A DNA stretch of 64,000 nt from the IMG/VR virus record IMGVR_UViG_2687453603_000006; one strand, 5' to 3'. Position numbers and translations under genes: made by a program. How positions within the stretch are numbered: the stretch's first letter is position 1; every line of letters starts with the position of its first letter. This document shows positions 2,656-23,310 of this stretch, piece by piece. This stretch comes from an uncultured virus (IMG/VR IMGVR_UViG_2687453603_000006). Lineage: Duplodnaviria; Heunggongvirae; Uroviricota; Caudoviricetes. Under the pieces are notes generated by a model. It was not told the DNA's origin and made no database searches. It saw only the letters and a list, made by a program, of their open reading frames with translations.

Positions 2656-3979
2656 GATAAAGTCCGTATAATTGTGTAAAAGTAAAAAGGCCATATAACA
2701 GTCCTTTTACGGTACAATGTTTTTAACGACAAAAACATACCCAGGAGGACTTTTACATGACCCAAGTACATTTTACACTGAAAAGCGAAGAGATTCAAAG
2801 CATTATTGAATATTCTGTAAAGGATGACGTTTCTAAAAATATTTTAACAACGGTATTTAATCAACTAATGGAAAATCAACGAACAGAATATATTCAAGCA
2901 AAAGAATATGAACGAACAGAAAACCGACAAAGTCAACGAAATGGCTATTATGAGCGCAGCTTTACGACACGTGTAGGCACGCTAGAATTAAAAGTACCCA
3001 GAACACGTGATGGCCATTTTTCACCCACAGTGTTTGAACGTTATCAACGAAACGAAAAAGCCCTCATGGCTTCAATGTTGGAAATGTATGTATCAGGCGT
3101 TTCAACTCGTAAAGTATCAAAAATTGTGGAAGAACTTTGTGGTAAATCCGTCTCTAAGTCCTTCGTTTCTAGCTTAACAGAACAGCTAGAACCTATGGTT
3201 AACGAGTGGCAGAATCGTTTATTATCAGAAAAAAATTATCCTTACTTAATGACCGATGTACTCTATATAAAAGTACGAGAAGAAAATCGAGTACTCTCAA
3301 AAAGCTGTCATATAGCGATTGGAATAACCAAAGATGGCGACCGTGAAATTATCGGCTTCATGATTCAAAGTGGCGAAAGCGAAGAGACCTGGACAACATT
3401 TTTTGAATACCTAAAAGAACGCGGTTTACAAGGTACGGAACTCGTTATTTCTGATGCGCACAAAGGATTAGTCTCTGCCATTAGAAAATCCTTCACCAAC
3501 GTAAGTTGGCAAAGATGCCAAGTTCACTTCCTAAGAAATATCTTTACCACCATTCCTAAAAAAAATTCAAAATCTTTCAGAGAAGCTGTTAAAGGAATTT
3601 TTAAGTTCACAGATATTAACTTAGCGCGTGAGGCTAAAAATCGATTGATTCATGATTATATCGATCAACCAAAATATTCAAAAGCTTGCGCATCATTGGA
3701 TGATGGATTCGAAGACGCCTTTCAATATACCGTACAAGGAAATTCCCACAATCGACTAAAGAGTACCAATCTAATTGAACGACTGAATCAAGAAGTACGC
3801 AGAAGAGAAAAGATTATTCGCATCTTCCCCAATCAAACATCAGCCAATCGCTTAATTGGAGCCGTTCTTATGGACCTACATGATGAATGGATTTATTCTT
3901 CAAGAAAATACATCAATTTTGATAAGTAGAAATGGTAAAAACATTGTATAGCATTTTACACAGGAGTCTGGACTTGACT
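2656..3979 (+). mobile_element. IS256, complete 1324 bp
   Basis: Ends GATAAAGTCCGTATAATTGTGTAAAA and TTTTACACAGGAGTCTGGACTTGACT; 8-bp target duplication AAATAAAA at 2648-2655 and 3980-3987. Confidence 0.97.
2757..3929 (+). CDS. tnp: IS256 transposase (Mutator family DDE)
   Basis: 390 aa MTQVHFTLKSEEIQ...; motifs RNGY, SDAHKGL, WQRCQVHF, STNLIERLN. Confidence 0.97.
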   Translation: MTQVHFTLKSEEIQSIIEYSVKDDVSKNILTTVFNQLMENQRTEYIQAKEYERTENRQSQRNGYYERSFTTRVGTLELKVPRTRDGHFSPTVFERYQRNEKALMASMLEMYVSGVSTRKVSKIVEELCGKSVSKSFVSSLTEQLEPMVNEWQNRLLSEKNYPYLMTDVLYIKVREENRVLSKSCHIAIGITKDGDREIIGFMIQSGESEETWTTFFEYLKERGLQGTELVISDAHKGLVSAIRKSFTNVSWQRCQVHFLRNIFTTIPKKNSKSFREAVKGIFKFTDINLAREAKNRLIHDYIDQPKYSKACASLDDGFEDAFQYTVQGNSHNRLKSTNLIERLNQEVRRREKIIRIFPNQTSANRLIGAVLMDLHDEWIYSSRKYINFDK

Positions 3980-5368: not shown

Positions 5369-6028
5369 TTAAAATAATGTTACGATTATAATTGTGTCAT
5401 TCAATTTTCCCACTTCATAAGTGCCAACAATTACATCGCTATTTGCGTTTAATTCGATTAGTTTATCATGTCCGAATTTTTCAAAGTCAAAGTAATTAAT
5501 AATGTTTTGATCTATTTTTTCAATTGCTTTAAAATTGATATAATCTAATTCATCAATTAAATAATTAGCAAAATTAACAATACATGTATTATATTGATCT
5601 TGTGCAAAAATTCGCATACTTTCTATATTTTCAATAATTTCATCGGTTGTTAATTCGTCCGCTTGCTCTTTTGCGTAGTCGTTTAAAATTTCCATAACTT
5701 TGTATTTATCATCATTAAAATAAGTTATTTCTTGATCTGCACCAAAGAAATTATATAATTTTTCATTGATAGCGATCTGAATTTTTGCCATATCGTTTAC
5801 ACGTTCAATATTTGAGTATTGACTAATGCCGCCGATATTTTCCCAATCTGTTAAAAAATACTCTTCATACTGTACACCATCAACACCGATATTTTTTAAT
5901 GCTTGATTAAATTGATCTTGTGTAGCTGGTACATTTAACCATTGGCCAACGTGTTTGCCTTCTGTGTATTTTCCTAAATTAGTGATATAGATTGCTGGTT
6001 GATTTTCTTTAATTGTTAAGTTTTTCAT
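5369..6028 (-). CDS. ardA: Antirestriction protein ArdA
   Basis: IYITNLGKYTEGKHVGQWLNVP, EEYFLTDWE and YFDFEKFGHD are typical ArdA motifs. Confidence 0.85.
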   Translation of the reverse strand: MKNLTIKENQPAIYITNLGKYTEGKHVGQWLNVPATQDQFNQALKNIGVDGVQYEEYFLTDWENIGGISQYSNIERVNDMAKIQIAINEKLYNFFGADQEITYFNDDKYKVMEILNDYAKEQADELTTDEIIENIESMRIFAQDQYNTCIVNFANYLIDELDYINFKAIEKIDQNIINYFDFEKFGHDKLIELNANSDVIVGTYEVGKLNDTIIIVTLF

Positions 6029-15416: not shown

Positions 15417-15446
15417 AGTTTTATAACTTTGAAAGGAATTGAAAAC

Positions 15447-16943
15447 ATGATTATCACAAAGGAAAATTTACATAATTATGTAGATAGCTTAGGCTACTCT
15501 ACCGAAGAATTAGAAGAAATGAAAATTGGAGACTCGTATGAAATCTCTACAACTATTAATAAGATAAAAAGAACTGCGTTAGATGAATGGTTATTTTTAC
15601 GATTTGACTCAGTTAATACTCATATACATAAAGAATACCCTTCAAACCAAAATAATAAGGAATTGTGGGATAATTTTAAAAAATCTTGTGATTATGCTTT
15701 AAAGTATGGAGAAGATAGAAATAATGCGATCAAAGAAAACTTTAACGATGATCAAGCAGCAGAAATTGTTAGTACAGTAACGTTTATGAATGAACAAGTT
15801 AAAACTACTTCAGCTCAATTATCTGGAGAGTCTGGTATTACAAAAACGCTAGAAAAAATTGCAGATTATATTGTATTTTCTAAGTTCAACAATGCAAAAG
15901 AAGAAGAACAACACGAAGATATAAAAAAAGAAATTATGCGTCTTGAACGTATCAAAAAGAAAAAACGTAAAGAAGCTGAACAAAAAAGAATTGAAGAGGC
16001 TAAGTTAGAACTTAAAAACACTCCATATAACCATACTAAAAAACTATCAGTACCACCTTCTCATATGAATTTAACTAGTCTTAGCCAAATTCATGATAGC
16101 ACTATTAATGAGCATTCAGCTGGAACTCATGTTAATTACACAAGAGTAGATAGACAAATGGAGCAAGGTAAGTTTAATGAAGATATGGAGGCATTCTGGG
16201 AACGTTTTTCTCCAAGTAAACCTAATTCAATTCCTCATTACACTAAAGAACCAATTAATTATAAAGAATTAGCTTACAGTACGATGAAACAATATATAGA
16301 TGAAATCGAATATCTAGAAAGTAGACCTTTCTCACCTGATCGTGCAAAACAGATTTCATATTTAAAAACAGAAATGCGAACTGCTTTAGAAACATTAAGA
16401 AAAGTTATTCATATTCAACCAACCTCTTCTATTGATGAAACAATTCCTATGGATAGTTGGAATAGATTAAGTTTAAGAAACACTGATACATATATTGCTT
16501 TATTATTAGGTTACTATGACGCAACAAAGAAATATGACAATAAACCTTCAACTAGCTTTTGGGCTTTATTTAGAACTTTTGAGCAAATATTAAATAACAC
16601 ATTATGGACTAATGAAGAAAAAGTATTAATTGAGTTTATTCTTGAAACAGGTATTACTGATCAAAAACAAATCTCTTATGAGCTAGAAAAAGAAACTGGT
16701 AGTATCATATCTCAAAGTCAAATATCTAAATTAATCAATAAGCATATACCAAATAAATTACTTTATACATACGAAAAACAATTAGAAGACTGGATATGGA
16801 CTTATCGTAGAAAAGGTTTATATAAAACATGCAAGCATTGTAATGAAGTTAAGCTTGCAGTAGACAATAGATATTTCAGTAAAGACACTAAAGGAATATA
16901 TGGTTTAAAAGCTAAATGTAAGACATGCGAAAAGAAAAAATAA
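15447..16943 (+). CDS. Hypothetical protein with sigma-region-4-like HTH and C-terminal Zn finger
   Basis: ATG 15447 after AAAGGA. TNEEKVLIEF...DQKQISYEL...SQSQISKLI is HTH-like; CKHC...CKTC at the C-terminus. Confidence 0.7.
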   Translation: MIITKENLHNYVDSLGYSTEELEEMKIGDSYEISTTINKIKRTALDEWLFLRFDSVNTHIHKEYPSNQNNKELWDNFKKSCDYALKYGEDRNNAIKENFNDDQAAEIVSTVTFMNEQVKTTSAQLSGESGITKTLEKIADYIVFSKFNNAKEEEQHEDIKKEIMRLERIKKKKRKEAEQKRIEEAKLELKNTPYNHTKKLSVPPSHMNLTSLSQIHDSTINEHSAGTHVNYTRVDRQMEQGKFNEDMEAFWERFSPSKPNSIPHYTKEPINYKELAYSTMKQYIDEIEYLESRPFSPDRAKQISYLKTEMRTALETLRKVIHIQPTSSIDETIPMDSWNRLSLRNTDTYIALLLGYYDATKKYDNKPSTSFWALFRTFEQILNNTLWTNEEKVLIEFILETGITDQKQISYELEKETGSIISQSQISKLINKHIPNKLLYTYEKQLEDWIWTYRRKGLYKTCKHCNEVKLAVDNRYFSKDTKGIYGLKAKCKTCEKKK

Positions 16944-17750: not shown

Positions 17751-18935
17751 ATGAGTTTAAATATTACTCGTGGTGATAATGAAACTTTAGCTCAGTATCA
17801 CTTCAGACTTTATAAAAATAAAGAAGAGATGGGGCTCAGCAATATTCAGATTGCTGACCTTCTCAATTCTGAATATGGTACAAATTACGATGAGTCTAAG
17901 TTCCGAAAAGAATATCAAGCTTACATTAACGTTTGGAAAGATATGATCGAAGAAAAGCATAAAGCTTCATTACCAAATGGTATTGTTGAAGAACTTAGAT
18001 ATGAACGAAATGAACTTAAAAAAGAAAAAATTCGCTTTAGTGATCAAAAACGTGAATTCAATAACATTCTTAGAAAAATGGCACGTTTAGAACACTTACA
18101 AGATTACCTTAAAGAAACAGTTGAACAATTAGAACCTGTGAACTTAAACATTCAACCAACTCATATTGGTGTTAAAGAAGCTATGGTAGTCATTAGTGAT
18201 ATGCATATAGGAATGCAAATTAACTCTCAATTTAACGTTTACAATAAAGACGTTGCTAAACAACGTTTAGAAAAACTTTGCAACAAGACATATGATAAGG
18301 TTCAAAAAGAGAATATTACAACATTACATATTGCGTCATTAGGCGATCAAATCAATGGTTTAATTCATTCGACAACTAGAATTAATAATGAAGAGAATGT
18401 AATTGAACAAATTATTACAGTTAGTGAATATTTAAAACAATTTGTTAAAGTTTTCCTAGATTTAGGCATTAACGTTAAATTTTATAATGTTGTTGGTAAT
18501 CATAGCAGAGTGGTTGCTAACAAAAAAGACTCAATCGGTACTTCTGAGTCTTTCGAGAGATTAATCACAACAATCTTAGATACTTCTTTTGAAAAATATA
18601 CTAATTATCACTCAGAAAGTGATACTGAAGGTTTTATAGTAATTAACATCTCTGGTAAAAATATAGTCTTAGCTCACGGTGACTTAGACAGAGGTGCTAA
18701 TTCGATTACTAAGCTTTCACAATTATTAGGAATTCAAATACATTACATATTTACTGGACATGTACATCATCATTTTGTTAAAGAACATGGCTTAACTGTT
18801 CAGTATGGTGTTGGTTCATTCTGCGGACTTGACCAATACGCTATTAGCGGTAGATTTTCTGGCCGCCCTTCTCAATTACTTGTGACATTTAATGAAACAG
18901 ATATTGAAGAAACTAATACAGTTTATTTAGACTAA
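17751..18935 (+). CDS. Calcineurin-like metallophosphoesterase (YonJ-like)
   Basis: SDMHIG, LGDQING, GNH, HGD and GHVHH motifs. Confidence 0.85.
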   Translation: MSLNITRGDNETLAQYHFRLYKNKEEMGLSNIQIADLLNSEYGTNYDESKFRKEYQAYINVWKDMIEEKHKASLPNGIVEELRYERNELKKEKIRFSDQKREFNNILRKMARLEHLQDYLKETVEQLEPVNLNIQPTHIGVKEAMVVISDMHIGMQINSQFNVYNKDVAKQRLEKLCNKTYDKVQKENITTLHIASLGDQINGLIHSTTRINNEENVIEQIITVSEYLKQFVKVFLDLGINVKFYNVVGNHSRVVANKKDSIGTSESFERLITTILDTSFEKYTNYHSESDTEGFIVINISGKNIVLAHGDLDRGANSITKLSQLLGIQIHYIFTGHVHHHFVKEHGLTVQYGVGSFCGLDQYAISGRFSGRPSQLLVTFNETDIEETNTVYLD

Positions 18936-19430
18936 ATCAAACTGGTTCCTGAGTACAAAAAACCCTTTACCCTAAGCATGATACGTCTGCTAGGAATTCT
19001 TAAAGGTGCTATTTGGTTACAGGTTTCGAATAGCTTTACTTTTTTTCTTAACGACAACTTTTCTACACCCAGATGTAGATTTTTATTCTCGATATTTTAT
19101 ATCGACTTTCAGTTAATAGCTGAACTCATTCAACCATCTTGGTATGATGGTTTCTCAAAGGCTTTGCGAATGTGCCCGTTGAAACATATCGTATTAAAAG
19201 TTGCTGTTTCTAGAGCGGCAACCAGTCATTTGATAACTTTTGAAAGATTAGTTACTATCTCGATTTTGAAAAACTCAGAACAGATTACCAGTCTGGTCGA
19301 GATATAGTTATAAAGTGTTGAACTTACTGGTTTGGTAAGCCTACTTCTTTTTAGGAGAAAGTTTAAGCGACTAATCTTTGCTTGAAAACTGTATCTAATA
19401 ATAATTAGGTATAGTTTTGAAGTATAGTTT

Positions 19431-19478
19431 CCTAACCAACGCCTCTTTTTAAAGCGAAACACGGTTAGGCTTTTTTTA
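19431..19478 (+). terminator. Terminator-like hairpin inside ncRNA block
   Basis: CCTAACC...GGTTAGG followed by a T-run. Confidence 0.5.
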
Positions 19479-20243
19479 CTTTTAAAGGACTATACGTCCA
19501 TCAAACAATACACATAGCGATTAACTCGCAGCATTAAATTGCACTATGCTAAGCGTAATTCCTATTTCTTGATCGCATGCACTTGGTTGTAGGTTGAAGG
19601 CATAGAACCGAAATAACCTATATGGTTGTAAACTTTGTTTCTATTGAAGTAAAGTTGAGTTTTTATATGGTCACTTAATTGAAACCTAACTTTATTTATC
19701 TTGTTAATAAATATTGAATTATGTTTCATTTATTTGACCGCTTCATCATAGGGTATATAGCTCCTTTAAGTCTATAAATCAAAATTAAGTGATGTAGTAA
19801 TTGCTTAGTTCCCTGTACAAACTTAGTTGATGACTAAGGTCGCTTTTTGCGATATGTTTCAAGCTATGACGAAAAGGTCTAATCAATCGTTTCCTCATAG
19901 ATTGCAATAATGATGTACACATTGATTGCAAAACCTTTATTGGTAGACGTATCAATAAAGGCACTTATTAAATGTTTCTATTTGGTAAGTGTAGGGCGTG
20001 GCAAAGCTGCCACCATAAATATAGCTCATTGATTGACTTTATTTAAATTATAGAGTTTTATGGTTCTCTTAAAAACCACTGTATATTCGAGTTTGTGATC
20101 CTCTCCAAAATCACACTGATGATCATCGTAAGAGTATTAAAATTAAGAAGTCCAGTATTATAAAAAAACTTACTTTTTCGGACTGAAGTTGCTGGTTATA
20201 AGTCCAGTTTTTCTAATTAATAAAAGAACAATTTTATTATAAA

Positions 20244-20294
20244 CGGTTTTCCTAATATGGTAGGCTCAGTTGGTTCGAAACCAAATAAACCGCC
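20244..20294 (+). ncRNA. tRNA-like element lacking anticodon arm
   Basis: Acceptor CGGTTT/AAACCG; D-like arm CCTA-ATATGG-TAGG; T arm TTGG-TTCGAAA-CCAA. Confidence 0.45.
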
Positions 20295-20514
20295 CTCTCT
20301 TATTTTATTTAAAAGGGTGAGGTTACTCTTTTTCATAACTACTCTCTATAATTCCTCTTTTCTTTTTGATACTTTTTGACACACCTCCCTCACATATAAA
20401 CACACTCACCCTTTTAATTGATTAATATTGTAATTAGAACCTAAACACAGCTTGGGTTTTAATTAGAGTGTTAATCACTCTCATTTTCCTTTCCATGATA
20501 AATTCCTTTCAGTT

Positions 20515-20541
20515 CCGACCTTCTCACAGGTCGGTTTTTTT
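20515..20541 (+). terminator. Intrinsic terminator
   Basis: CCGACCT-TCTCAC-AGGTCGG followed by T7. Confidence 0.8.
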
Positions 20542-20633
20542 GTTGGTTAGGTGAAGGTTTTTCCCTCTCCTAATCCTCTCCTTCCTTCACCTACCGAACA
20601 AAATTAAATTGACAACTAAAGATAGGTGAAATT

Positions 20634-21518
20634 ATGGCAATAAGAAAAAAAGCTGAAAAGAAATTAACTTGCATGTGCTGTAATAGAAACCTCACTCTTG
20701 ATTTGAACTATTATCCATTGAATGATAACAACCCAGCATTTCCAAACGGATATTATCCAATATGCAAAGATTGTTGTGCTGATATGTTAAAAGATGAGGA
20801 AAACGGTTATAAATCTTTCATTCAATTATTAAGAGTATTAGATTATCCGTTTAGATATGAAGCATTCGAACAGGTTAATTTTGATTATGTACGATACATG
20901 AATAAAGCTTCAATAAGACGTAACGCTTCTTTCATCGACTCAGACGCTCTAGTTAGTTCTAAAAGTGAAACATTAACTGAAGAGAATATCATGAAACTTA
21001 CTCCAGATGAGTTAAGACAATGTAAACTTTATTGGGGTGAAGGAGATTATACTGAAGATGATTATATTTACTTAATCAGTAGATATGAGAGTTACTGTAA
21101 GACATATGATGTTGATAGTCCAACCTTTGAGAATATCATCACTCAAATATGTCAATTAGAGCTAGAAATTCGTAAGAAGCGTACTAAAGGTTCACAAAGC
21201 ACTAAAGAAGAAACTAATTTAATTCTTAATTTAATGAAGAGTGCGGGTATCTCCCCTAACCAAGAAAAAGAAAGTAAGACTAATGATAAAGAAACTTTCG
21301 GTGTTTGGGTTAAACGTTGGGAGAATGATAAACCTGTACCCGAACCTTTAGAGGAGTTTAAAGATGTAGATGGAATTGAAAAATACGTTCAAAACAACTT
21401 CTTATCACCTATGAGACGCTCACTTGATTTAGATGACAATTTCCATGACCAGTATCAAGAGCATATCGACAAGTATGGTATCTCTACTGAAGAATTGTTA
21501 GGTGTTGAAGATGAGTAA
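20634..21518 (+). CDS. Putative terminase small subunit (YonG-like)
   Basis: Zn-finger-like N-terminus (CMCC, CKDCC); directly upstream of and overlapping terL. Confidence 0.65.
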   Translation: MAIRKKAEKKLTCMCCNRNLTLDLNYYPLNDNNPAFPNGYYPICKDCCADMLKDEENGYKSFIQLLRVLDYPFRYEAFEQVNFDYVRYMNKASIRRNASFIDSDALVSSKSETLTEENIMKLTPDELRQCKLYWGEGDYTEDDYIYLISRYESYCKTYDVDSPTFENIITQICQLELEIRKKRTKGSQSTKEETNLILNLMKSAGISPNQEKESKTNDKETFGVWVKRWENDKPVPEPLEEFKDVDGIEKYVQNNFLSPMRRSLDLDDNFHDQYQEHIDKYGISTEELLGVEDE

Positions 21519-23310
21519 GTTTGTTAACTCCAATAGTCCTTACAAAAATACTATTGATTTATTCAAACTAAGACGTAATAAACGTAATACTAAGTCTCGA
21601 TCAGAGCAAACGATGGAAAACATTGCTGTTTGGATATCTTTTTATAGAGAGAACCCACATCGTTTTGTTCTAGACTTTATGAATATTAATTTACGTCCGT
21701 TCCAATGTGTATTACTTTGGGCAATGATCCATCATCAATATTTCATGTTCTTAGCGTCAAGGGGGCTTGGTAAGACATTCTTATCTGCTGTATATTGTTT
21801 AACTCGTTGTATTTTATATCCGGGTACCAAGATAATTATTACAGCTCCTACTAAGTCTCAAGGTATCAACGTATTAGAAAAAATTGAAAACGAATTACTC
21901 TCTCCTCTTATTCACAGAGAGATTGAGTCTATTAATACTGGAAACCAGAAACCTATGATTGCTTTTCATAATGGTAGCTGGATAAGAGTAGTAGCCTCTA
22001 ATGATAATGCTCGTGGTCATCGTGCTAACCTATTATTAGTCGATGAGTTCGTTAAAGTTGATGAAGATTTAATAGATACAGTATTCAAGAAAATGTTAAC
22101 CTCTCAACGTGAACCAGCATTCTTACATAAGGCTAAATATAAAAATTACCCTCGTGAAGAAAATACTCAAATGTATTTATCATCTGCATGGATGAAATCA
22201 CACTGGGCTTATGACTCAATGCGTTCGTTTACCAAACAAATGCTCAAGAAGAAAAGTGAAGATGACTTAAAGTCATTTGTTTGTCATATCCCCTACTATA
22301 CAGGTGTTATGGAAAAACTTTATTCTCATAAACAAATGAAAGCCGAAGCTCAAGCAGAAGGTTTCAATAAGATGAAATTTGCTATGGAGATGGAAGCAGT
22401 TTGGTGGGGAGAAACTGAGTCAGCTTTCTTCAATTTTAATACGATTGACTTTAATAGAAAGCTTAGTCAAGCATTCTATCCTAAAGAAGTTTTAGTTCAA
22501 GCAGATATAAATAACCCAATCAAAGAGCCTAAAGAGAAACGTCTCTTAGCAGTCGATGTTGCCCGAATGGGTGGTAACTCAAATGACGCTTCTGTGTTCA
22601 GTTTGATTAGATTATTACCTAAGGGAAAACAACAATATGAACGTCAACTTAACTACATGGAGGATATGGAAGGTATTGACTTCCAAACTCAAGCAATAAG
22701 AATTAGACAATTATACGATGATTTTGATTGTGATTATATTGTACTTGACTTAAAAAATGTTGGTGCTGGTATCTTAGATAACTTGAGAATACCTTTAACC
22801 GATATTGATCGTGGTGTTGAATATGAGCCACTGAACGTTTCTAATGATGATGATTTAGCTTCTACTTGTAAATATCCAGAAGCACCAAGAGTTATTCACG
22901 TTATTAACGCTACTAATGAACGTAACATGGAAATGGCTAACTTATTAGCCGATAACTTCATGCGAGGCAAATTTAGATTGTTAATTCGTGAAGAACAAGC
23001 TGAAGAGTTATTTAGACAAGATAAGAAACTTAAATACCTCAATCTCAACCCTTCTACTCAAGCTCTACTTAAATATCCATATCGACAAACTGAATTATTT
23101 ATCAGTGAGGTCATGAACTTAGAGCAAGTAAACATGGATAATGGAGCATTTAAACTCGTTACTTCTGGCAGAGCACGTAAGGATAGATACTCTTCTGTTT
23201 CTTATGGAAATCAATTCGCTACTATTCTTGAAAGAGAATTAGCTCGTCACACAAGAAACATTGATTTCAAACGTTTTGGATCAGTCAGAAAACCTAAAAA
23301 TATTATATAG
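21511..23310 (+). CDS. terL: Terminase large subunit
   Basis: ASRGLGKT Walker A, LLVDE Walker B, AVDVAR nuclease motif, KDRYS. Start chosen at ATG 21511. Confidence 0.92.
   Translation: MSKFVNSNSPYKNTIDLFKLRRNKRNTKSRSEQTMENIAVWISFYRENPHRFVLDFMNINLRPFQCVLLWAMIHHQYFMFLASRGLGKTFLSAVYCLTRCILYPGTKIIITAPTKSQGINVLEKIENELLSPLIHREIESINTGNQKPMIAFHNGSWIRVVASNDNARGHRANLLLVDEFVKVDEDLIDTVFKKMLTSQREPAFLHKAKYKNYPREENTQMYLSSAWMKSHWAYDSMRSFTKQMLKKKSEDDLKSFVCHIPYYTGVMEKLYSHKQMKAEAQAEGFNKMKFAMEMEAVWWGETESAFFNFNTIDFNRKLSQAFYPKEVLVQADINNPIKEPKEKRLLAVDVARMGGNSNDASVFSLIRLLPKGKQQYERQLNYMEDMEGIDFQTQAIRIRQLYDDFDCDYIVLDLKNVGAGILDNLRIPLTDIDRGVEYEPLNVSNDDDLASTCKYPEAPRVIHVINATNERNMEMANLLADNFMRGKFRLLIREEQAEELFRQDKKLKYLNLNPSTQALLKYPYRQTELFISEVMNLEQVNMDNGAFKLVTSGRARKDRYSSVSYGNQFATILERELARHTRNIDFKRFGSVRKPKNII

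Follow-up and report, generated by a model that had tools for sequence, protein, structure and literature searches.

A conserved two-junction RNA domain with a kissing-loop pseudoknot upstream of the packaging genes of SPbeta-like staphylococcal phages

A structured RNA element precedes the packaging genes

We report that positions 19195-19425 of a 64,000-nucleotide (nt) stretch from an uncultured Caudoviricetes virus (IMG/VR record IMGVR_UViG_2687453603_000006; the whole stretch is hereafter referred to as the window) encode, on the plus (+) strand, a structured RNA domain that is maintained by selection at the RNA level. The element comprises two junctions and one pseudoknot in about 230 nt, and sits in a 1.7-kb gap poor in open reading frames (ORFs; 18936-20633), in untranslated DNA 5' of the DNA-packaging genes. 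The window represents a Staphylococcus SPbeta-like phage, and the 1.8 kb around the element are 98.9% identical to 4 S. epidermidis/S. haemolyticus phage records. An initial annotation, made without database searches, had proposed an ornate, discrete structured RNA domain here. That proposal is borne out for the + strand, since the fold surpasses those of shuffled sequences and its pairing is kept in homologs. The segment 19195-19480 folds to -76.8 kcal/mol on the + strand (z -3.95; 0 of 200 shuffles as good) and to -57.1 kcal/mol on the minus (-) strand (z -1.85), while 19195-19425 by itself yields z -6.1 on the + strand (0 of 100 shuffles as good). The complementary segments named in the annotation all exist in the sequence, some of them shifted by one base (Table 1).

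Using blastn, Mammaliicoccus phages, which carry a 2.6-kb gap at the same place, matched only the last 230 bases of the window's gap; a short-word blastn recovered a 38-base match inside the element. In phi36, phi6255 and the window alike, the same two anchor strands are spaced by exactly 116 nt, and the sequences between them differ yet stay complementary. We used a covariance model, R1, built from the 4 Mammaliicoccus copies only, together with a structure read by eye from those copies. R1 matched the window copy with 77 bits (expect value, E, 1.9e-19) and a copy in L007 (a phage from IMG/VR, with 56% identity between its YonG and that of the window) with 41 bits (E 1.2e-9), in each case on the + strand and with the full model covered. 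The comparison accordingly spans three lineages, namely Staphylococcus, Mammaliicoccus and L007. The element is single-copy in the nearest virus record.

Searches of IMG/VR, metagenome contigs, plasmids and 401 sampled genomes yielded no lineage beyond these three. Over 75 IMG/VR loci with relatives of yonG, the sole match of R1 was L030, which is the same contig as L012, and a second model, R2, gave nothing better than E 0.24 over 77 loci. A pattern scan for the two anchors returned 12 loci, of which 4 were of the window type, 1 was Mammaliicoccus-like and 7 were chance occurrences that R2 ruled out. The conserved junction motif was present at 26 loci, with 0 matches among the 21 not known before. 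The metagenome contig scan produced near-identical or unrelated loci only, and the plasmids scanned held no match. R2 also rejected the 1 marginal match, of 24 nt, from a BLAST of the 401 genomes, which were sampled from one bacterial class.

Compensatory changes support the helices in three lineages

We aligned nine sequences (4 Staphylococcus-type, 4 Mammaliicoccus-type and L007) with guidance from the model. The final structure holds 61 pairs in 7 helices, and 96.6% of its alignment cells are standard pairs; sliding the 3' partners by 1-3 columns drops the paired cells to 35-52%. Both-sided changes occur in 39 of these 61 pairs, and none of 500 shuffles attained any of five measures, with the caveat that the alignment was fitted to P1, P2, P2', P3 and P4. 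Absence of conserved pairing among homologs, which the initial annotation had named as fatal to its proposal, is thus not what the alignment reveals: pairing is kept, with many compensatory changes.

The individual helices (Table 1) follow the same trend. Substitutions in L007 change both sides of 5 pairs of P1 (TCAAAATGGTT/AACCATTTTGA). P2 is exemplified by TCTCGA/TCGAGA in the window, ACCCTA/TAGGGT in Mammaliicoccus and TCTAAG/CTTAGA in L007. In P3, 97.6% of cells are paired and 2 of 5 pairs have both-sided changes; an alternative hairpin, CTTAC/GTAAG (19323-27/19335-39), competes with P3 in the window alone. Both-sided changes were likewise seen in 11 of the 18 pairs of the long hairpin P4, which has 98.7% of its cells paired and includes G-U pairs that suit the + strand only. 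Px was proposed by RNAalifold, is not part of R1, and displays both-sided changes in 7 of 7 pairs, while P3b (19344-19357) does so in 4 of 7 pairs, with 88% of cells paired. Because Px and P3b are absent from the model behind the alignment, they constitute independent support. The kissing loops described below are likewise outside the fitted model, yet covary.

The 5' hairpin P0 was excluded from the pair counts, as it could not be reliably aligned. A G-to-A change in L004 and L005 converts a U-G pair of P0 to U-A, and Mammaliicoccus and L007 carry a hairpin of other sequence and size at the same relative position. At the 3' side, the Mammaliicoccus counterpart of hairpin P5 was read by eye as having the same loop motif, AGCGAAACA, with other stems (CTTCAT/ATGAAG) and no T run, and L007 has no P5 hairpin.

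A kissing-loop interaction is conserved

The P2' loop (19285-91, TTACCAG) pairs with the P3 loop (19332-38, TTGGTAA) over 6-7 base pairs (bp). Complementarity of these loops is found in every lineage, with differences that compensate: the respective P2' and P3 loops are TTACCA(G) and (T)TGGTAA in the window, (T)GACAAG and CTTGTC(A) in most Mammaliicoccus copies, TGACAAA and TTTGTCA in phi6255, and GACCA(G) and (T)TGGTC in L007. Shuffled loops attain the observed run in 0.1-1% of trials, or 5.8% for L007, and an inverted-repeat search in L011 reported the same loop pairing (repeat I14). On these comparative grounds, the P2'-P3 loop pairing is a true pseudoknot.

This loop-loop interaction is the conserved pseudoknot, and it had been missed by the initial annotation, which instead regarded the 11-bp long-range helix as crossing another. 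The 11-bp helix itself is real, with 5 compensatory pairs, but its pseudoknot topology does not hold: AACCAGT/ACTGGTT, the helix that it was said to cross, is not conserved, which leaves the 11-bp helix nested, as the closing stem P1. AACCAGT/ACTGGTT forms 7 bp in 4 of 4 Staphylococcus rows; in L007 and in each of the 4 Mammaliicoccus rows, the best complementarity amounts to 4 bp. Consistent with this, the minimum free energy (MFE) structure ignores AACCAGT/ACTGGTT and uses the 11-bp helix as an ordinary closing stem, as does the comparative model. A further proposed helix, ATAACT/AGTTAT, belongs to the Staphylococcus lineage only, where it loses a pair in L004 and L005 that is uncompensated.

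The selected molecule is most simply an RNA

Across the helices we counted 50 G-U cells versus 3 A-C cells, and in each of the four copies tested the + strand had a lower MFE than the - strand. Selection thus acts on the + strand, most simply on an RNA. ORFs of 109 amino acids (aa) on the + strand and 78 aa on the - strand overlap the element in the window; both are lost or altered in the 98.9%-identical relatives, are missing from the other two lineages and have no PHROG match.

The stretch is present in 14 RNA-sequencing runs from 4 studies, and we examined 4 of these runs, one per study, as assembled contigs. In three of them a single 20-29-kb contig spans everything, so DNA carry-over is possible. 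In the remaining run, X13, the stretch is split into contigs of very unequal mean word depth, with no listed piece over 19369-19462. One X13 contig runs into adapter letters at 19056, which hints at an RNA end without proving it. As contigs convey neither starts and ends nor strand or level, we base no conclusion on the breaks or the depths. Contigs from the RNA libraries bridge 19027-19368, which reaches into the element, and extend from 20315 across conserved block F (see below) into the packaging genes. Overlap with a 60-nt piece of very high depth may have raised the mean depth of the X13 contig covering 19463-20313. In X13, contigs of 60 nt at 20285-20344 reach a mean word depth near 20,000, versus hundreds in neighboring contigs, and may correspond to a very abundant short RNA, contig depth being a poor measure. 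Just 5' of them, 20252-20280 resembles fused D-arm and T-arm motifs of a transfer RNA (tRNA), at which ARAGORN calls no tRNA.

The element heads a collinear series of structured blocks

The element is the first of five conserved structured blocks (the element, G, H, I and F), whose order and strand are the same in the three lineages (Table 1). The series spans 690 nt in L007 and 1.4 kb in the window, and may belong to one RNA or to several. Exact copies of the H motif are present in the window, L001, L011 and L007, with no exact match in L010 or L024. Hairpins H and I combine conserved loops with lineage-specific complementary stems and look like candidate protein-binding RNA hairpins; the loop motif of hairpin I, GAAGTTRCTGGTTA, resembles the 5' strand of P0 (repeat D4).

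Block F consists, in order, of a small hairpin, a pyrimidine-rich strand (TTCCATGA), an intrinsic terminator (CCGACC..GGTCGG, 20515-34, then a T7 run) that is kept in all 3 lineages, and a 20-bp hairpin. This last hairpin measures 19-24 bp across the lineages, with a 5' arm that includes the T run and a pyrimidine-rich loop, and the stems of block F covary in Mammaliicoccus and L007. The block ends about 30 nt 5' of the yonG-like start codon, and its terminator lies about 100 nt before the first packaging gene. The block motifs were absent from the SPbeta locus.

Table 1. Features of the element and its gap. Positions refer to the window; the last three columns give the location of the five collinear blocks in the window, L011 and L007.
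Feature	Position	Strand	Description	Collinear position, window	L011	L007
yonJ-like gene	17751-18935		metallophosphatase 'exonuclease'; upstream border of gap			
Element				19243	2047	3344
P0 hairpin	19200-09 / 19213-22	+	loop CUA; in MFE and centroid structures			
P1, AAAGATTAGTT (5' strand)	19243-53 / 19369-79	+	11 pairs; 99% of cells paired			
P2	19254-63 / 19297-19308	+	AU bulge; both-sided changes in 9/10 pairs			
P2' (distal helix of P2)	19281-84 / 19292-95	+				
P2-Px junction, UAUAAAG	19309-19315	+	TTRTAAAG kept in 9/9 aligned sequences			
Px, TTGAACT/AGTTTAA	19318-24 / 19360-66	+	encloses P3 and P3b			
P3 hairpin	19328-31 / 19339-43	+	one bulged U; loop 19332-38			
P3b hairpin, CUUCU/AGGAG	19344-48 / 19353-57	+	loop UUUU; added by eye, outside R1			
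P4 long hairpin	outer 19381-83 / 19420-22; inner 19385-99 / 19404-18	+	18 pairs			
P5 hairpin, CCTAACC/GGTTAGG, and T7 run	19431-77	+	terminator-like; Staphylococcus lineage			
Block G	19606-19664	+	blastn blocks; motif once per lineage, 3' of element	19610	2349	3513
Hairpin H	19934-19961	+	loop GGTAGACGTA, stem covaries; inverted repeat I11	19942	2583	3679
Hairpin I	20160-20215	+	loop GAAGTTRCTGGTTA, stem covaries; terminator-like in window	20185	2630	3763
Block F	20463-20606	+	best-conserved DNA of gap	20491-20602	3535-3641	3873-3976
GTTGCTGTT / AGCGGCAAC	19200-08 / 19214-22		complementarity seen in window			
AACCAGT / ACTGGTT	19220-26 / 19326-32		complementarity seen in window			
ATAACT / AGTTAT	19233-38 / 19306-11		complementarity seen in window			
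TATCTCGA / TCGAGATA	19256-63 / 19297-19304		complementarity seen in window			
AAAGATTAGTT / GACTAATCTTT	19243-53 / 19369-79		10 Watson-Crick pairs and 1 G-U			
Long hairpin	19385-99 / 19404-18		complementarity seen in window			
Hairpin with T7 run	19431-77		seen in window			

Gene neighborhood

Upstream of the gap lie an HU-like gene and a YonK-family gene in addition to the yonJ-like gene. Downstream lie a 294-aa counterpart of YonG (28.6% identity to SPbeta YonG), then the large terminase, portal and structural genes. The first gene 3' of the element is >1.1 kb distant. The gap is without any annotated feature in the RefSeq record, and ARAGORN found zero tRNA genes in the window. No helix around the element at long range is common to the lineages. 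A perfect 13-nt inverted repeat, TTGAAACATATCG/CGATATGTTTCAA, at 19179-19191 and 19850-19862 (658 nt apart) flanks the element together with blocks G and H in the window, with no counterpart in L007 or L011.

Several further features of these genomes were recorded. The large terminase is one 602-aa ORF in the window (21502-23310) and two annotated coding sequences in NC_029119 (L001 6608-8405). An 'endonuclease' gene splits the large terminase gene of phage phi116 (L024 4578-7232), an arrangement suggestive of a mobile insertion. The early region of the window encodes an IS256-type transposase (2757-3929; Transposase_mut, E 2e-166) and an ArdA antirestriction protein (5369-6028). The Mammaliicoccus gap holds a match to the rli28 family on the - strand (L011 3223-3410, 86 bits; L010 3230-3407, 75 bits), which is absent from the window. 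By eye, this match overlaps a short ORF on the same strand for a small hydrophobic peptide, and the pair looks like a type I toxin-antitoxin-like module.

The element matches no known RNA family

A search of the 64-kb window with Rfam 15 produced 0 matches at gathering scores. With E up to 10, 14 Rfam matches fell within 18800-20800, none of them relevant, and 15 were found in the three lineages, with no family common to the lineages over the element; neither search returned ROOL, GOLLD or a ribozyme family. The Infernal comparison with Rfam that the initial annotation had recommended identified no family. As Rfam 15 gives no relevant match at either stringency, we exclude the ROOL, GOLLD, ribozyme and riboswitch families as homologs. 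The motifs of Weinberg et al. 2017 were compared through their Rfam 15 models. The drum and DUF3800 models did not match the element and had no match in G001, and matched elsewhere in the gaps of relatives (L011 2770-2887, L012 781-898 and L025 1485-1550); a DUF3800 protein was absent among the 38 window proteins scanned. We found no account of this RNA in Rfam 15 or in the literature searched, and the RNA is apparently so far undescribed.

We regard the element as a new structural family within a known kind, the complex phage non-coding RNA, with a narrow range and a well-supported structure. As passages of PMC5737381 describe them, ROOL and GOLLD occur in a prophage or phage setting, often with tRNA genes nearby. 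The element shares with them a phage or prophage setting and a multi-domain, ornate fold, and has tRNA neighbors in its Mammaliicoccus relatives, though not in the window. It differs in that no model of theirs matches, in that there is no sign of assemblies formed by it, and in length: about 230 nt, compared to 581 nt for ROOL in the same passages, GOLLD being longer. Drum RNAs are described there as complex motifs followed by terminators. This and the other orphan RNAs of Weinberg et al. 2017 (DUF3800-I to XI and skipping-rope) are likewise complex conserved folds of unknown function that terminators often follow, and two of them occur nearby, drum in the Mammaliicoccus gap and DUF3800-VIII in the SPbeta gap; the element nevertheless matches none of their models.

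Discussion

The fold that emerges begins with the 5' hairpin P0, followed by the 11-bp P1, which closes a junction carrying P2/P2' and Px; Px in turn carries P3 and P3b, and the kissing loops lock the whole domain. The long hairpin P4 comes next, then the terminator-like P5 in the Staphylococcus lineage. What the element does is addressed here by weighing several readings, among which we tentatively favor a cis-acting leader or antitermination RNA of the packaging operon. In this reading, the entire gap would be an extended leader for the packaging/structural operon, in which the domain, by itself or together with a phage protein, would modify the polymerase that transcribes it. Intrinsic terminators along the leader, chiefly the conserved one before the first packaging gene, would thereby be read through in cis.

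The conserved terminator before the first packaging gene, together with collinear blocks on the operon strand, favors the view that the gap is a leader whose RNA structures would control elongation. All five blocks are on the strand of the flanking operons, and in L007 they nearly fill its 790-nt gap. By eye, there is no room for a conserved promoter between the block F terminator and the first packaging gene. Among 57 loci with relatives of yonG, 28 have 600 nt or more free of ORFs somewhere in the 4.5 kb upstream. As expected of an antitermination RNA, the element lies on the operon strand and 5' of terminators, and would be transcribed as part of the leader. Homology to a known put, EAR or conAn member was not apparent from Rfam, which may not include put or conAn. 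More doubtful is the stronger proposal that a single large leader RNA of several domains (about 0.7 kb at minimum, 1.4-2.4 kb with inserted RNA genes), with the element at its 5' end, would itself be the late-gene switch of SPbeta-like phages of staphylococci. Such an RNA would be a processive antiterminator or a polymerase-binding scaffold, in either case of a new structural class, and would take the role that YonO has in SPbeta.

Several observations weigh against the leader reading. Its function is assigned by analogy only, and the element is without sequence or structure likeness to any Rfam family. The comparison covers 3 lineages only, such that one inherited change counts in several alignment rows and independent events are few. 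A terminator-like hairpin follows the element in the Staphylococcus lineage only, and no promoter motif common to the lineages was found upstream. A terminator lies directly 5' of the element in 2 of 4 Mammaliicoccus variants, phi6255 and L012, which would suit a separate gene no less than a leader, and the Mammaliicoccus gap also houses independent RNA genes on the same strand, namely those for tRNAs and a drum RNA. The contigs of the RNA libraries convey no ends, strand or level. Finally, no homolog of YonO was found in the window. The position that YonO occupies in SPbeta is taken in the window by a 504-aa protein (15429-16943) of PHROG 5767, 'sigma factor' (E 2e-126), which neither Pfam nor NCBIfam matched and which does not resemble YonO.

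Some of these same observations favor a reading that we consider nearly as likely as a cis-acting leader, in which the element would be an independent trans-acting small RNA, some 280-420 nt long and encoded within an island of non-coding RNA genes, that targets a host or phage protein or RNA and serves in host takeover, lysogeny control or anti-defence. Hairpins with T runs stand on both sides of the element in the window, 19008-49 upstream and P5 downstream, and terminators lie 5' of it in phi6255 and L012. The drum RNA that shares the Mammaliicoccus gap with the tRNA genes is of a kind that, in the passages of PMC5737381 on drum, terminators follow. A compact fold locked by a tertiary contact is also typical of RNAs that bind partners. 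However, an independent gene would not require fixed strand or strict collinearity with blocks G to F, and no conserved promoter upstream of the element, nor any terminator 3' of it in Mammaliicoccus or L007, was found. We note that the upstream hairpin with its T run (19008-19056), which follows the yonJ-like gene, lies within a block conserved in Mammaliicoccus.

The other readings are less likely. A riboswitch-like sensor, in which a small molecule or ion bound by the P1-closed domain would govern the P5 terminator, is improbable: the architecture is like that of junction riboswitches in which a terminator comes after a domain with tertiary loop contacts, the junction UAUAAAG is conserved and P5 with its T7 run follows in the window, but this terminator is not kept in the other two lineages, leaving no conserved expression platform. 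Furthermore, we saw by eye no alternative antiterminator pairing with the 3' strand of P1, the first downstream gene is more than a kilobase off, and no known riboswitch model matches. A shade less probable still is a self-cleaving ribozyme or processing signal that would cut a long leader into separate RNAs. The multi-helix junction, tertiary loop-loop contact and conserved junction bases would suit such a role, as would the neighboring tRNAs of relatives, which need processing, whereas no Rfam ribozyme family was found at E up to 10. Least probable of all is action at the DNA level, as a single-stranded DNA structure or as a protein site for replication or packaging (pac). The element lies 5' of the terminase genes, a common location of pac or cos sites, and G-T pairs are possible in single-stranded DNA too; nonetheless, the excess of G-U over A-C cells and compensation in seven helices plus a loop-loop pairing are unexpected of a duplex-DNA site, and the region is found in RNA libraries. 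In addition, relatives of SPbeta start packaging between yonR and yonP, away from the terminase genes, according to passages of a preprint (bioRxiv 10.1101/2021.11.22.469490).

Comparison with known systems places a cis-acting leader in context. EAR is a cis-acting processive-antitermination RNA, and put RNA, another such RNA, is smaller than the element. HK022 putRNA (PMC9378689) is a nascent RNA that acts in cis for terminator read-through, and PMC8191782 describes conAn as a large RNA element of Gram-positive conjugative elements that mediates processive antitermination. The element would resemble all three as a structured leader RNA of a very long mobile-element operon, 5' of intrinsic terminators. 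It differs from them in lacking sequence or structure likeness and any Rfam match; its putative activity is proposed by analogy.

According to passages of PMC5467207, the late operon of SPbeta begins 5' of 'an unannotated non-coding RNA' and yonK. The gap described here is similar: it is untranslated, about 1.7 kb long and on the strand of the late genes, and it lies near HU, yonK, yonJ and yonG in a phage family shared with SPbeta. In contrast, the SPbeta gap is at yonN-yonK and that of the window at yonJ-yonG, R1 and R2 give only E 0.24-0.5 at the SPbeta gap, and SPbeta uses YonO, which the window is without. The 1.7-kb unannotated yonN-yonK gap of SPbeta (L025 126-1806) contains a DUF3800-VIII match at 1485-1550 (47.5 bits; cut-off 40.2), and presumably is the 'unannotated non-coding RNA' region that opens the YonO-transcribed late operon.

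SAM-I and lysine are junction riboswitches with tertiary loop contacts. The element is like them in its P1-closed multi-helix junction, its loop-mediated tertiary pairing and, in one lineage, the terminator that comes next; it differs in that no model matches, the expression platform is not conserved and no regulated gene is adjacent.

SPbeta-like prophages are large mobile elements of S. epidermidis, S. haemolyticus and Mammaliicoccus. Although the three lineages limit its reach, the element is a well-supported addition to the complex phage RNAs of unknown function, of which there are few. A two-junction, kissing-loop RNA that would head a structured leader with a conserved terminator at its end is a concrete candidate for RNA-based control of a 40-kb operon.

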